Shown piece by piece: positions 5,381 to 39,875 of a stretch of 64,000 nt of DNA. Source of the stretch: Alphaproteobacteria bacterium (GTDB lineage Bacteria > Pseudomonadota > Alphaproteobacteria > MPNO01 > UBA830); assembly GCA_965243135.1 (NCBI GenBank), contig OZ251539.1, positions 3,776,001-3,840,000 on the forward strand. The letters are read 5' to 3'. The first letter of the stretch is position 1. Every line of letters starts with the position of its first letter. A model generated the notes under the pieces. The model had not been told where the DNA came from. It did not search any database and worked only from the letters and a program-made list of their open reading frames with translations. The position numbers were made by a program, and so were the translations under genes.

Positions 5381-5429
5381 TCCGGAGGTCCGAAATTAGG
5401 GTTAACTCCCCCCCCCCCCCGGCTATATT
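5381..5429 (+). promoter_or_regulatory. Precursor promoter: GAAATTAGGGTT box, -35 TTAACT, C13 spacer tract, -10 TATATT
   Basis: TTAACT 5402-5407, C13 5408-5420, TATATT 5424-5429 (16-nt spacer); same box recurs at other precursor loci. Confidence 0.65.
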
Positions 5430-5461
5430 CATCGTCGAAACTTCAAGGAAGGGTATCCGTT

Positions 5462-5848
5462 ATGACAGACGCAGCAATGCCCAGCCCGGACGGCATGCTC
5501 AACGCTTACAGGAAGGTAATCCCCTTCGCGCAGGCCTATCGCGAGGACGCGGAGTTCCGCTCCCGGGTGGACGAGGATCCGAAATCCGTCATGGCCGAGC
5601 ATCACTTCGAGGTGCCGCCCGGCGTGGAAGTGCGCATCATGGAAGACACGGACGACACTTTCCACCTGGTCCTGCCGCCCGACCCGAACGTCGTCCTGTC
5701 CGACGAAGCGCTCGGCATGGTCGCCGGCGGCAAGTCGGCGAGCACGATCGGAAGCGCCGGCTCCGCCAGTACGGTCAGCACCGTATGCACCACCGCGAGC
5801 TGCGCGGCAAGCGCCGGCTCCCTGGGATCCGCGGGCACCGCGGGATAA
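5462..5848 (+). CDS. NHLP/proteusin precursor P1 (128 aa); core KSASTIGSAGSASTVSTVCTTASCAASAGSLGSAGTAG
   Basis: Leader motifs DAEFRSRVDEDPK, VRIMEDTDDTFHLVLPPDP, LSDEALGMVAGG (double-Gly cleavage site). Confidence 0.93.
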   Translation: MTDAAMPSPDGMLNAYRKVIPFAQAYREDAEFRSRVDEDPKSVMAEHHFEVPPGVEVRIMEDTDDTFHLVLPPDPNVVLSDEALGMVAGGKSASTIGSAGSASTVSTVCTTASCAASAGSLGSAGTAG

Positions 5849-5910
5849 GCCGGGAGCCCCGGCGGCCGACCGCTCGACTCGTTGTCCACAATCAAGAGGA
5901 GGATCATACC

Positions 5911-6306
5911 GTGGAATATACCGACATGACGCCCGAGGCAGTGCGGATGTACCAATCCAACTTCGCCTCGTTCAGATCGTTGTCCGATCGCTACTGGGAG
6001 GACGAGACCCTGCGCGGGCGGATCGACGCCGGGGACGTGGGAGACTTGCTCCCCGACCTCGGGATCGAGGTCTCTTCCGGCACCGACGTCCGAATCGTGG
6101 CCGACAGCGCCGACACGCGCTACATCGTCCTGCCGCCCGACCCGAATGTCCCCCTGTCGGACGAGACGCTCGGCATGGTCGCCGGCGGCGGCAAGACCGG
6201 CAGCACCGCCGGGACGGTCGGGTCGGCGAGCACCATGGCTTGCTCGTCCGTGCCGTCTTCGGCCAGTTCCGCCGGCACGGCGGGCTCGGTCGGCACCGCT
6301 GGCTGA
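5911..6306 (+). CDS. NHLP/proteusin precursor P2 (131 aa); core GKTGSTAGTVGSASTMACSSVPSSASSAGTAGSVGTAG
   Basis: GAGGAGG RBS before GTG 5911; YIVLPPDP and LSDETLGMVAGG. Confidence 0.92.
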   Translation: MEYTDMTPEAVRMYQSNFASFRSLSDRYWEDETLRGRIDAGDVGDLLPDLGIEVSSGTDVRIVADSADTRYIVLPPDPNVPLSDETLGMVAGGGKTGSTAGTVGSASTMACSSVPSSASSAGTAGSVGTAG

Positions 6307-6324
6307 CCAAGGAGGAACTTGATC

Positions 6325-6684
6325 ATGGAAATTCATGCGAGCGACTACTTGACGAAAGGAACCTACCTGAAGGACGTTCTCGATCCGGAATTTCGAGAGC
6401 GGATGCAGGCGGCTCCAGACGCGGCCTTGACGTCATGGGGCATAGATCTCCCCCCCGGCATCGATGTCAGCGTTCACGTGAACACGGACGACACTTTCCA
6501 CCTGGTCCTGCCGCCCGACCCGAACATCCCCCTGTCGGACGAGACGCTCGGCATGGTCGCCGGCGGCAAGACGGCGAGCACGATCGGAAGCGGCGGCTCC
6601 GCCAGTACGGCGGCAAGCATACCCAGCACCGCCAGCACCGCGTCAAGCGCGTCGACGGCGGCATCCATCGCCTGCGCGAGTTAG
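6325..6684 (+). CDS. NHLP/proteusin precursor P3 (119 aa); core KTASTIGSGGSASTAASIPSTASTASSASTAASIACAS
   Basis: AAGGAGG RBS; DPEFRERMQAAP, FHLVLPPDP, LSDETLGMVAGG. Confidence 0.93.
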   Translation: MEIHASDYLTKGTYLKDVLDPEFRERMQAAPDAALTSWGIDLPPGIDVSVHVNTDDTFHLVLPPDPNIPLSDETLGMVAGGKTASTIGSGGSASTAASIPSTASTASSASTAASIACAS

Positions 6685-6712
6685 GCGCAGAACCTGCCTC
6701 CTCCTTCTTTCT

Positions 6713-6746
6713 CCAGGCGCCGCTCCGCGGGCGGCGCGGCGCCTGG
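6713..6746 (+). terminator. GC-rich stem-loop between precursor genes and YcaO (terminator or mRNA stabiliser)
   Basis: CCAGGCGCCGC / GCGGCGCCTGG 11-bp inverted repeat; no U-tract. Confidence 0.45.
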
Positions 6747-6832
6747 GCGCTCGGGCGTCGGGAAAAGAGCGCGGCGGTTTGACAGAGGCCGATTGACAAT
6801 CGCAGCCGACCCGATTATGGGTTGATTCCGTC

Positions 6833-37860: not shown

Positions 37861-37901
37861 ACCTGCCGCAGTAAACGAACAGTCACGAAAGGTTACGGAC
37901 C

Positions 37902-38159
37902 ATGGTCGAAAGTACGGATAACAATCTCGACAAGGCGCTCGCCGATCTCACCCCCGAGCGGGTCGAACGCAATCAACAGATCTACGCCGACATTGTCGCC
38001 AAGTACTACGGCGATCCTGACTTCAAGGCGAAGGTGGATGCGGACCCGACTCGGGTTCTCAAGGACGAGGGCCTTGAGATCCCCGAGGGCGCCAACGTCA
38101 AGTTGCTGTTCAACACTGAGAAACTCCTGCATATCGTGTTGCCGGCCCCTCTCAAATAG
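37902..38159 (+). CDS. Stand-alone NHLP leader-like protein with no Gly-Gly site or core (85 aa)
   Basis: IVAKYYGDPDFKAKVDADPTRVLKDEGLEIPEGANVKLLFNTEKLLHIVLPAPLK then stop. Confidence 0.85.
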   Translation: MVESTDNNLDKALADLTPERVERNQQIYADIVAKYYGDPDFKAKVDADPTRVLKDEGLEIPEGANVKLLFNTEKLLHIVLPAPLK

Positions 38160-38616
38160 GAAATTCTCGAAGCGTTTGTCGGCTGCTGTCTCCTCGGCAC
38201 CGCGCAGATCGCTTCGCCCGCGAGCGGGTTCGCTCCATGGCGGGTCGCGGTCTCGGGAGGGACTGCCGCAAGGGTCGGCGTGAAGCCTGTCATGCTTTTT
38301 TCAGGCGGACGGGGTGCTTGCCGGCCTGACGCCCGGCGGCATCCCTTGCGACCGGCGTGGTTGGGGGCTGCCGGGCGAGCAGGGCGCTGCGCCCCGCTGT
38401 TCGCCTCGAGGCCTTGGAGCGTCAGGCGCCGGCCCCCGAGTTAGCGGGGAACCTGCAAGTCACGCGCGCTCCGGGATTGGCGCGTTCCGGTTGCGCCTTG
38501 TCTTCCTGCCCAACAACGCAGTCCCGTCCGCGATGACGGCCATCTTCGGTCCGGCCGGTCCTGTCCGTCGCTGCGCCGCGCCCAAGGAGTGTCGGACGCC
38601 CAGTTAAAATCCAACA

Positions 38617-38662
38617 ATGTCAGGAGATCTGAAATTAGGATTTGAAATTAGGGTTTCCCCCC
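38617..38662 (+). promoter_or_regulatory. P6 upstream element: TCAG-N5-CTGA plus tandem GAAATTAGG(A/G)TT boxes and C6
   Basis: ATGTCAGGAGATCTGAAATTAGGATTTGAAATTAGGGTTTCCCCCC. Confidence 0.6.
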
Positions 38663-38739
38663 TCGGTTAGGGTAGTGGATGCGTGCGTGAGTGAGTGTGT
38701 CGCCTCGCATGATCGAAACAGCGAATTGAGGACGGAAAC

Positions 38740-39153
38740 ATGCCCCCTATCAACTTGACGACCGTGCTTCACATACCGGTGTCGCCCGAAGGACTCCTAC
38801 AGAGCGTGCGCCAGCTCGCGTCCATCGCGGATGAGTACCGCAAGGATCCGGAGTTTCGCTCGAACCTTAGCTCGGACCCGGTCGCCGCCCTCTCCGAGAA
38901 CAGCATCGAGGTGGTGCCCGATACGGAAGTGCGCATCGTCGAGGACACCGACGAGGTTTTCCATTTCATCCTTCCCCCCGACTTCAACGCCAGCGTGGGG
39001 GACGAGGTGCTCAATGCGGTCGCCGGCGGCGGCAAGACCGCCAGCAGCGCGACCACCGGACCCGGCTATGGGGGGCCCCGAGGACCCTCTTGCGGATGCG
39101 GCGCAAGCTGCATCGACGCATGGACCTCACGAGGGGGAAGCGGCTCCATCTGA
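38740..39153 (+). CDS. NHLP/proteusin precursor P6 (137 aa); core GKTASSATTGPGYGGPRGPSCGCGASCIDAWTSRGGSGSI
   Basis: YRKDPEFRSNLSSDP, VRIVEDTDEVFHFILPP, VGDEVLNAVAGG. Confidence 0.9.
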   Translation: MPPINLTTVLHIPVSPEGLLQSVRQLASIADEYRKDPEFRSNLSSDPVAALSENSIEVVPDTEVRIVEDTDEVFHFILPPDFNASVGDEVLNAVAGGGKTASSATTGPGYGGPRGPSCGCGASCIDAWTSRGGSGSI

Positions 39154-39229
39154 TCGACGCAGCCCGTCGCATGTCGCGGCCGGCCCCGGCCGGTTCGCGG
39201 GATTTGGGCTCGAACCCGAATCACCTGAG

Positions 39230-39670
39230 GAGCGAAATCGCCCGCCGCCGCGGCGTCGTTCGACAACGCGTATTCCTGGACGACAGGAGCGAGCGGCGAC
39301 GGCGTCATTAACCGTTTGGCCCGGTCGGTCTTCAACGCCGAATTGAGTGCGCGCGAGGGAATGGCGCGGGAGTTGGGGTAGACGCAGCGCCCGGCTTCTT
39401 TACCGCCTGGGCGTGCCGTCACGGCGGAGGCCTTCATGTCCGGCATCGCGCGCCGGAGAGACCGCGTCGAGTTCCCGCAACGGCCGCCGCGTATCTACCT
39501 GCATCGTCGGCCGCGCGCCTTCACGGGAGGCGACTTGACGCTCTACCGCCCGACTTTGTCCGAATTCGGCCGGCGCACGACGCTCTCGTCGCGTTTCCGC
39601 CCGAACGCGAGGTCGAGCCGGTGCGCTGCGACCCCGACGACTGGGGCCGGCCGGTTCAGGGGATTCGTGC
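39230..39670 (+). pseudogene. Remnant of a 2OG-Fe(II) oxygenase
   Basis: IYLHRRPRAFTGGDLTLY motif within disrupted frames. Confidence 0.5.
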
Positions 39671-39729
39671 TCGAGTCTCCCGCGGCAGCGCCCTCAAGGC
39701 GCGCCTCTGAACGGCGCTGCGCCGGACAT

Positions 39730-39875
39730 CGTTACCCCGGACATCTCGTCGACGAATCGTCGGTTGCCGATAGCGGCAAGGCGGTGAGCACCATGCGCCG
39801 GAACCCTGCCTTCCTGCGTGAGTTCGGCCGGAAGCATGGGGGTAGCCTCGGAACCGCGAGGGACAGCCTTTGGAG
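39730..39875 (+). pseudogene. NHLP core remnant related to P4
   Basis: ACCCTGCCTTCCTGCGTG..GGCCGGAAGCATG..AACCGCGAGGGACAGCCTT matches the P4 core (TLPSCV..AGSM..TARDSL). Confidence 0.75.

Follow-up and report, generated by a model that had tools for sequence, protein, structure and literature searches.

Analysis of a 64,000-nucleotide stretch of an Alphaproteobacteria bacterium genome (GCA_965243135.1, contig OZ251539.1, positions 3,776,001–3,840,000; hereafter the window) uncovered, at positions 5459–39875, what is probably a single gene cluster for ribosomal, heavily modified peptides of the dehydrazole branch of proteusins. The cluster spans ~34 kb and, as an earlier note on this DNA had proposed, joins gene families for azole formation, LanM-type dehydration and PoyD-type epimerization with extra oxygenases and several precursors in one locus; all of these families are present. 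The locus is not a new kind of system, the first such products having been described in 2023–24. Its novelty lies in an accessory block of oxygenases, kinase and peptidases, a core-less nitrile hydratase leader peptide (NHLP) protein, a reduced LanC-like domain, and a concertedly evolving pair of YcaO genes.

Because the window is G+C-rich (~64–71% across the cluster), raw lists of its open reading frames (ORFs) are crowded. Genes were called by codon-usage score and named via Pfam and NCBIfam, and every enzyme family of the cluster proved present and intact. This confirmed, positions included, the gene list of the earlier note (six intact NHLP precursors, two YcaO, SagB, a LanM-like protein, a PoyD-type radical S-adenosylmethionine (rSAM) enzyme, four Fe/2-oxoglutarate (2OG)-type oxygenases, a kinase and an exporter) and also its cluster boundaries. 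An MFS transporter and an unnamed ORF lie to the left, and a STAS protein, a TRAP transporter and a tRNA to the right; these flanking genes never recur beside the related clusters examined, including those of two relatives, G049 and G026, and the left flank (1–5000) has no synteny in four same-genus genomes. Parts absent from the earlier list are three precursor remnants, the core-less NHLP gene, two MPN-NlpC/P60 genes, an OmpA-like barrel, and a small ORF at 32598–33107. A chance grouping of these genes is excluded, since the same gene set is syntenic in two other genomes: both G049 and G026 carry syntenic clusters with the same accessory genes.

The core biosynthetic genes are consecutive on the plus strand (6853–13143). 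YcaO-1 (6853–9189, 778 aa) encodes a winged-helix/E1-like docking domain fused to a YcaO cyclodehydratase (PF02624, E 1.3e-98; PF21084) and scores above the cut-offs of the curated models TIGR03604 (276.9 bits; cut-off 219.25) and TIGR03882 (136.3 bits; cut-off 36.9). It is followed by a SagB/ThcOx-type flavin mononucleotide dehydrogenase (9227–10597; TIGR03605 155.4 bits, cut-off 78.4) and a predicted LanM-derived DUF4135 dehydratase (10594–13143, 849 aa; DUF4135 E 5.5e-65) with a shortened, apparently zinc-free LanC-like C-terminal domain. Dehydrazoles have been defined by an NHLP precursor, a YcaO with a dehydrogenase, and a DUF4135 enzyme whose LanC-like domain is zinc-free, or LanMbC (Pei, Zhu and Nair 2023, PMC10676384). 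Here, too, the YcaO and dehydrogenase genes are syntenic with the DUF4135 gene, and the cluster is homologous to one with a solved product, the nostatin-type locus L041 of Nostoc.

Two characterized systems share this core set. The cca cluster of Chryseobacterium carnipullorum encodes the YcaO CcaB, the dehydrogenase CcaC, the rSAM epimerase CcaD, and the DUF4135 enzyme CcaM (1015 aa), and its product, carnazolamide, contains eight azoles and eight dehydroalanines (Dha), every one of them in front of an azole, as well as a single S-methyl group and D-Pro15 (PMC10676384). The carnazolamide dehydratase requires azoles but not the leader, while the epimerase is the last to act and needs prior azole formation and dehydration (PMC10676384). 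Likened by description rather than by sequence, cca resembles the window cluster in its NHLP precursor with a Ser/Thr/Cys-rich core, its YcaO and dehydrogenase, its PoyD-like rSAM enzyme, and its DUF4135 enzyme with a LanC-like tail, zinc-free in cca and apparently so in the window. However, cca encodes a single precursor together with an S-methyltransferase and an S8 protease for the leader, whereas the window carries six precursors, a C39-ABC/ABC/HlyD/TolC exporter, four oxygenases, a kinase, two NlpC/P60 proteins, another YcaO copy and a core-less NHLP protein; the DUF4135 enzyme of the window (849 aa) has a reduced C-terminal domain.

The same core genes (NstC–G) in Nostoc give rise to nostatin A, a compound with cytostatic activity at nanomolar concentrations that contains X-Dha/Dhb-azole triplets (Dhb, dehydrobutyrine) and a D-configured, modified Pro15 in a T-P-S-C context (Delawska et al. 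2024, PMC11583998). The nst cluster shares five core functions with the window, as well as the P-S-C motif at the D-Pro site, which recurs in the form P-S-[S/T/C] in five of the six window cores. It differs in a B12-type rSAM C-methyltransferase, a sactionine bridge, a leader without a GG motif, and a full-length LanM-like protein; no oxygenase or kinase is mentioned for it in the consulted passages of PMC11583998. The precursor core of L041 is identical to the printed nostatin core, and its proteins are 45% (YcaO), 33% (SagB), 31% (LanM-like) and 34% (rSAM) identical to those of the window. The combination of NHLP precursor, YcaO, dehydrogenase, DUF4135 dehydratase and PoyD-like epimerase has already been characterized as dehydrazoles, and the earlier statement that no characterized product of this kind was recognized is superseded by carnazolamide and nostatin A (PMC10676384, PMC11583998). 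Proteusins of the srp type from sponge microbiomes (Agarwal laboratory; PMC10858898, PMC11832590) likewise combine NHLP precursors with YcaO and, like the clusters of the present clade, are spread over bacterial phyla in sponge-associated metagenomes, but have LCCC(W) cores and a flavin brominase and lack a LanM-like enzyme, an epimerase or the oxygenase set; with no LCCC core and no halogenase found in the window cluster, an srp-type assignment was rejected. Within the literature library searched, no description of the present dehydrazole variant was found, although the supplementary cluster lists of PMC10676384 may show relatives, e.g. the Candidatus Thioglobus cluster, which contains two YcaO/dehydrogenase pairs.

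Searching with the LanM-like protein recovered 79 loci, L041 among them, of which 19 are close (47–82% identical) and 60 distant. The window and the 19 close loci, all of the latter on chromosomes of metagenome-assembled genomes, make up the clade of 20 genomes referred to below. The close loci carry the labels Alphaproteobacteria, Vicinamibacterales, Gammaproteobacteria, Candidatus Porisulfidus, Candidatus Marinacidobacterium and Paracoccaceae, and two of them coincide with the G049 and G026 clusters, which a genome search had also picked out among 60 relatives. Among the distant loci, a YcaO gene lies within 10 kb in 44 and a SagB gene within 10 kb in 40. They include two strains of Cystobacter fuscus, a species listed by Pei et al. 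(PMC10676384).

By its sequence, the LanM-like enzyme of the window groups with the YcaO-linked LanMbC lineage. The kinase-type motif, D-x-H-x-x-N in canonical LanM, reads D-F-W-F-D-N, following the D-F-W-x-D-N pattern of the lineage. The protein scores 255.7 bits with the LanM model TIGR03897 (positions 78–704 of 932), below the cut-off of 304, and no Cys-Cys-His zinc triad was found in its C-terminal domain, where one Cys alone is invariant in the alignment; it does not qualify as a LanM by score, by zinc cyclase or by motif. Lengths measured from the first matched residue range from 834 to 875 aa in nine close loci, while relatives in Nostoc, Kouleothrix, Polyangium and Nonomuraea have 1000–1075 aa. 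A 233-aa ORF at 13140 was considered as the missing half of the LanC-like domain and rejected; it is a 2OG oxygenase, and in G026 it stands apart from the LanM-like gene.

The six precursors fall into three groups of positions. P1 (5459–5848, 129 aa), P2 (5923–6306, 127 aa) and P3 (6325–6684, 119 aa) open the cluster on the plus strand; P4 (15689–16069, 126 aa) adjoins the epimerase gene and P5 (29683–30090, 135 aa) lies further right, both on the minus strand; P6 (38740–39153, 137 aa) is again on the plus strand. All six match TIGR03793 (E 6.5e-8 to 1.8e-15) and also NHase_alpha, and all their leaders end in ...[AV]AGG(G) (...GMVAGG in P1), paired with an NHLM-type C39-ABC exporter. The cores are 35–43 residues long (38, 37, 38, 35, 43 and 39 in P1 to P6), consist of 36–50% Ser/Thr/Cys, start with Lys directly after Gly-Gly, and contain five to seven [S/T][S/T/C] pairs each, a pattern that is converted to Dha/Dhb-azole in carnazolamide and nostatin A; the P1 core has 18 Ser/Thr/Cys and that of P6 three Cys. 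A motif x-P-S-[S/T/C] occurs in every core (VPSS in P2, IPST in P3, LPSC in P4, IPST in P5, GPSC in P6) except that of P1, which has no Pro. Orthologous cores are conserved between genomes, with near-identical P2 cores in G049, G026, L022 and L033, and P4 is 86% identical to the G049 precursor that adjoins the epimerase of that genome. Three relics accompany the intact genes: a decayed P4/P5-type copy with a stop codon and frameshifts (29238–29561, minus strand), a frameshifted remnant upstream of YcaO-2 (37569–37782, minus strand), and a frameshifted relic of a P4-type core (39790–39875, plus strand), the last a weak match with an E value of only 0.056.

Between the core genes and P4, a putative PoyD-type rSAM peptide epimerase (14162–15658, minus strand) contains one CxxxCxxC motif (C153, C157, C160) and a CC pair at 339–340. 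No such epimerase was found in the 25 same-family genomes, four of which are of the same genus. Since x-P-S-[S/T/C] occurs in five of six cores and both characterized homologues invert a single Pro, analogy suggests at most one D-Pro in each peptide rather than a product with many D-residues.

The export genes comprise an NHLM HlyD-type membrane fusion protein (18153–19403, plus strand; TIGR03794 267.9 bits, cut-off 156), NHLM ABC1 with C39 peptidase, permease and ATPase (19765–21963, plus strand; TIGR03796 1020.7 bits, cut-off 853; catalytic Cys motif ECGAAC), the NHLM ABC2 permease/ATPase (21968–24904, plus strand; TIGR03797 843.3 bits, cut-off 709), and a TolC-like outer membrane efflux protein (25714–27113, minus strand; PF02321 E 1.2e-54), whose frame is open to 27834 and whose homologous part begins at ~27100.

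Characterized homologues suggest the following pathway. The fused docking-domain/YcaO protein would cyclodehydrate Cys, Ser and Thr, and SagB would oxidize the products to thiazoles and (methyl)oxazoles. The LanM-derived DUF4135 enzyme would then dehydrate Ser/Thr residues just before an azole, giving Dha/Dhb-azole units. The PoyD-type rSAM enzyme would act late and invert probably one residue, the likeliest target being the Pro of x-P-S-[S/T/C]. Finally, the C39 domain of ABC1 would cleave after Gly-Gly, and ABC1, ABC2, HlyD and TolC would export the product. Outside the steps modelled on these homologues, the four oxygenases and the APH-family kinase are predicted to hydroxylate, and perhaps phosphorylate, the peptides.

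Several observations weigh against this assignment. Five of the six precursors score below the TIGR03793 cut-off of 50.9 bits (P1, at 56.5, is above it; P5 reaches 50.8 and the others 32–47), and the epimerase, at 315.7 bits, is ~9 under the TIGR04517 cut-off of 325, although the match is full-length (model positions 1–445 of 446). Asp and Asn are absent from the P1–P3 cores; the AspH-type enzymes would therefore not be classical Asp/Asn hydroxylases on P1–P3, and would have another target or act on P4–P6 only. The epimerase occurs in just 10 of the 20 clade genomes and is consequently dispensable, and in G049 it (84% identical) lies ~1 Mb from the main cluster, at about 942–946 kb of C1 (L003, L006, L007), with four P4/P5-type precursors of its own. 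Vicinamibacterales relatives have two to three epimerase matches per genome but no Pro in the Ser/Thr/Cys-rich part of the core, and therefore Pro may not be the general target. Relative to the 1000–1075-aa relatives, the alignment shows that ~150 residues are gone from the C-terminal domain of the LanM-like enzyme by internal deletions; this domain is essential for CcaM (PMC10676384), so that dehydration might fail or differ in the window enzyme.

The position of the epimerase in G049 bears on whether two pathways share the locus, the rSAM enzyme with the P4/P5-type precursors being independent of YcaO, SagB and LanM with P1–P3 and P6, so that YcaO and epimerase never act on one peptide. In addition to the separate site in G049, this is suggested by the precursors themselves, P4 and P5 being 62% identical to each other and 35–47% identical to P1–P3 and P6, and by the adjacent rSAM and P4 genes on the minus strand between plus-strand operons. 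P4/P5-type cores nevertheless share the Ser/Thr/Cys make-up and the P-S-[T/C] motif, the only two YcaO genes of G049 are both in its main cluster, the rSAM gene of G026 sits between YcaO and SagB, and CcaD needed prior azoles and dehydration (PMC10676384). We consider two independent pathways unlikely; the arrangement in G049 is a natural split of the system, and the epimerase is probably also far from the main cluster in G072.

The polytheonamide pathway has a LanM-type dehydratase domain and a hydroxylase, and its gene set includes an epimerase, rSAM C-methyltransferases and an N-methyltransferase, but no YcaO. The polytheonamide (poy), aeronamide and landornamide systems resemble the window in combining NHLP precursors with a PoyD-family epimerase; they differ in having no YcaO and no azoles, and in C- and N-methyltransferases, none of which was found among the called ORFs of the cluster. 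The earlier note had read the locus as polytheonamide and azole chemistry merged, and the enzymes of both chemistries do occur in one locus; the LanM-like enzyme, however, groups with the YcaO-linked LanMbC enzymes, with D-F-W-x-D-N and an apparently zinc-free tail, and this part of the reading does not fit. A product in which iterative PoyD-like epimerization sets many D-residues among the azoles has in its favour the match of the rSAM enzyme to almost the whole PoyD family model and the LanM-type dehydratase and hydroxylases common to both pathways, but appears distinctly improbable. No methyltransferase domain was detected by Pfam or NCBIfam among the called ORFs of the cluster, which has two YcaO genes, and half of the clade genomes do without the epimerase. 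Epimerases of the poy type install many D-residues early, on the unmodified peptide (PMC10676384), while both characterized epimerases encoded beside YcaO and LanM-like genes invert one Pro, late (PMC10676384, PMC11583998). The "D-amino-acid poly-azole peptides" of the earlier note are for these reasons probably too strong a description.

A further reading is that the shortened LanM-like enzyme has lost its dehydratase activity, so that dehydro residues are absent or arise through the APH kinase by phosphorylation and elimination, or that the kinase acts on residues which are hydroxylated first. Dehydration by kinase and lyase has precedents in thioamitides and class V lanthipeptides, where phosphorylation is followed by elimination. 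The missing ~150 residues, in a domain that CcaM requires, and the APH-family kinase that 6 of the 19 close loci carry near the LanM-like gene (within 10 kb) would agree with such a loss. Yet the LanM-like gene is present in all 19 close loci, is under purifying selection, with a ratio of nonsynonymous to synonymous substitution rates (dN/dS) of 0.33, and shows many invariant columns in both domains. The remaining C-terminal part (250 aa) folds confidently, with a predicted local distance difference test (pLDDT) score of 81.8, and has as its best PDB match LicM2 (E 2e-4, 161 columns), followed weakly by LanCL1 (E 0.07). No HopA1-type lyase was detected in the cluster, and in 13 of the 19 close loci the 10 kb around the LanM-like gene showed no kinase. 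A loss of dehydration therefore seems improbable to us. That the cluster is a decaying or silent remnant without a product is very improbable indeed, as its three decayed precursor remnants and the dN/dS of 0.48 between its two YcaO copies stand against intact enzyme genes throughout, a dN/dS of 0.17–0.43 for the 14 genes compared, and orthologous cores conserved between genomes.

These 14 genes, compared between the window and G049, have dS values of 0.21–0.52, and as far as sequences can tell the cluster behaves as a unit under selection. Over 29 kb, cluster DNA is 84% identical to its counterpart in G049, which belongs to another family, whereas the TRAP genes of the right flank are only 73–80% identical to their same-genus counterparts. 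In a tree of the LanM-like proteins (20 rows, none dropped), well-supported clades mix Alphaproteobacteria, Gammaproteobacteria and Acidobacteriota, and the Alphaproteobacteria label needs at least four changes. Together, the identity to a genome of another family and the mixed tree indicate that the cluster moved between lineages. The DNA stretch is contained in ten sequencing runs from four studies, some of them labelled sponge metagenome. Contigs from two runs with this label, which come from a different study than the best-matching run, contained pieces with 0–7 differences per 500–1650 bases. Reads of four runs covered all 30 bins; the joints seen in these metagenomes, at 90% likeness, had sides too short to be informative (<30 letters; 36–41 at three skips of 100–114 bases).

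The second YcaO gene (YcaO-2, 34658–36994, minus strand) is a 97%-identical inverted duplicate of YcaO-1, with 752 of 778 residues the same, and it too matches PF02624 (E ~1e-98) and scores above the TIGR03604 and TIGR03882 cut-offs. The inverted repeat extends over 2362 nt at 98% identity, with arms at 6832–9193 and 34654–37015 that enclose 25 kb of the cluster, and G049 has the same arrangement (C1 3869160–3871499 and 3891135–3893483). The two copies are more alike within each of the two genomes (96.5% and 98.1% identical) than between them (84–85%), while in both genomes copy 1 ends in ...VFI and copy 2 in ...VFF. Because the copies are closer within than between genomes yet share a copy-specific last residue, the pattern is consistent with concerted evolution, an old duplication whose copies gene conversion has kept similar. 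Upstream of YcaO-2 there is nothing but the frameshifted precursor remnant. Recombination between the repeat arms could invert the 25 kb that separate them.

Directly after the LanM-like gene lies the 233-aa oxygenase (13140–13841, plus strand), for which there was no Pfam or NCBIfam match and no useful PDB sequence match. A protein atlas placed it near WelO5-like 2OG oxygenases. A structure model based on seven homologous sequences is only modestly reliable (pLDDT 65, predicted template modelling score 0.69) but returned WelO5 first in the PDB (E 1e-7, template modelling score ~0.6). H117-x-D119, H200 and R215 are invariant in all seven WelO5-like sequences. The halogenase form of this triad is H-x-G, and the triad found here is predicted to be of the hydroxylase type. 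The other three oxygenase genes are all on the minus strand: two of AspH/LpxO type (PF05118), at 16971–17777 (frame open to 18071, start uncertain) and at 32105–32614 (169 aa; E 6e-48), and one of PhyH type at 24911–25708, with a frame open to 26044. The APH-family phosphotransferase (33202–34236, plus strand, 344 aa; PF01636 E 2.4e-32) scores far below every named equivalog; among proteins of solved structure, aminoglycoside kinases and the kinase domain of ACAD10/11-type proteins are closest to it. Possible roles are phosphorylation of Ser/Thr or of a freshly formed hydroxyl, or protection of the producer.

Two further genes encode MPN/JAB-like plus NlpC/P60 cysteine peptidases with the architecture of phage tail protein K. 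Copy 1 (27835–28632, minus strand; phrog_30 E 3.7e-54) and copy 2 (30537–31331, plus strand) form an inverted repeat, 77–82% complementary, that flanks P5 and the dead precursor copy. Both proteins match the phage minor tail protein family phrog_30 with E values of 1e-54 to 1e-59. Their NlpC/P60 half has the Cys and His, whereas the MPN-like N-terminal half seemingly has no metal motif; no signal peptide was seen in either, and a PDB sequence search with them gave nothing useful. Homologues are present in 7 of the 19 related clusters. These two cytoplasmic, phage-K-like peptidases belong to the system, as does the core-less NHLP protein, and we would guess that they may trim the leader or the N-terminus.

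Within the clade, the WelO5-like oxygenase is present in 8 of 20 genomes, and the AspH-type oxygenases, the kinase and the NlpC/P60 proteins mostly travel with it; none of these four was seen in the 60 distant loci. Across the clade, Lys directly follows GG in 41 of 45 cores from the eight genomes with the WelO5-like oxygenase and in 0 of 36 cores from the others, one spurious match having been dropped from each of G049 and L037; as the genomes are kin, this association is a lead only. The stronger notion that a Lys at the start of the core is peculiar to oxygenase-bearing genomes was rejected, since elsewhere Lys often occurs 5–12 residues after GG.

The core-less NHLP protein (37902–38159, plus strand, 85 aa) ends in ...VLPAPLK and has neither a GG motif nor a core. 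It is matched in all 20 clade genomes, counting the window, with strong matches within 10 kb in 13 of the 19 loci, one further off in G049, and matches in the five remaining genomes (E at most 3e-37); homologues are seen in L023–L039, G049 and G026. All 17 copies whose ends were read, a set that lies apart from the five genome-wide matches, end 0–14 residues past ...VLPAP without GG or core. The protein is 58–86% identical across phyla, as against 30–60% for precursor leaders, and its dN/dS relative to G049, 0.17, is the lowest of the 14 genes compared. None was found at ≥55% identity among the 60 distant LanMbC loci. A truncated pseudogene was considered for 37902–38159 and rejected, the gene being conserved, always core-less, and of low dN/dS. 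A predicted complex between the core-less NHLP protein and the LanM-like enzyme scored 0.30, against a mark of 0.32.

The remaining genes of the cluster encode an OmpA-like outer-membrane beta-barrel with a signal-peptide-like N-terminus (31319–31960, minus strand) and a conserved protein of unknown function (32598–33107, minus strand), 57–71% identical in L021, L022 and L033. The latter gene contains an internal tandem repeat, a 60-nt unit at 81-nt spacing and 85% identity (32905–33045), which duplicates a ...SLSAL-FPW-RKT... segment. Outside the cluster, an Rfam scan of the window returned the tRNA gene as its sole match (44676–44757, minus strand), ~5 kb to the right of the cluster end. Two genes unrelated to the cluster lie further right: an AAA_14/DUF4143 ATPase gene (51000–52223), which adjoins the lowest-G+C stretch of the window (0.54; dip at 52–54 kb), and an AAA-ATPase/PD-(D/E)XK gene (61884–63419).

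Characterized dehydrazole-type proteusins number only two, and the window places the same core machinery in a widely exchanged clade with many precursors per cluster. The oxygenases, kinase and peptidases have not previously been seen with dehydrazole chemistry, and the products should consequently be new. Conceivably, although we hold this with low confidence, the clade represents a horizontally mobile, sponge-microbiome-associated sub-class of dehydrazoles in which half of the LanC-like domain has been lost from the dehydratase and the core-less NHLP protein serves in trans, as a scaffold or a subunit. In the eight carriers of the WelO5-like oxygenase, a block of WelO5-like, AspH-type and PhyH oxygenases, APH kinase and phage-K-like peptidase would then add chemistry tied to the Lys that opens the core, e.g. 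hydroxylation followed by phosphorylation, or elimination. If true, this would be the first view of a dehydrazole sub-class whose workings differ from those of carnazolamide and nostatin. The core-less NHLP protein is relevant to the purpose of the structured part of large leaders, and the shortened LanC-like domain provides a handle on substrate recognition by an azole-dependent dehydratase, making the cluster a good target for product discovery and for studies of NHLP-domain function.

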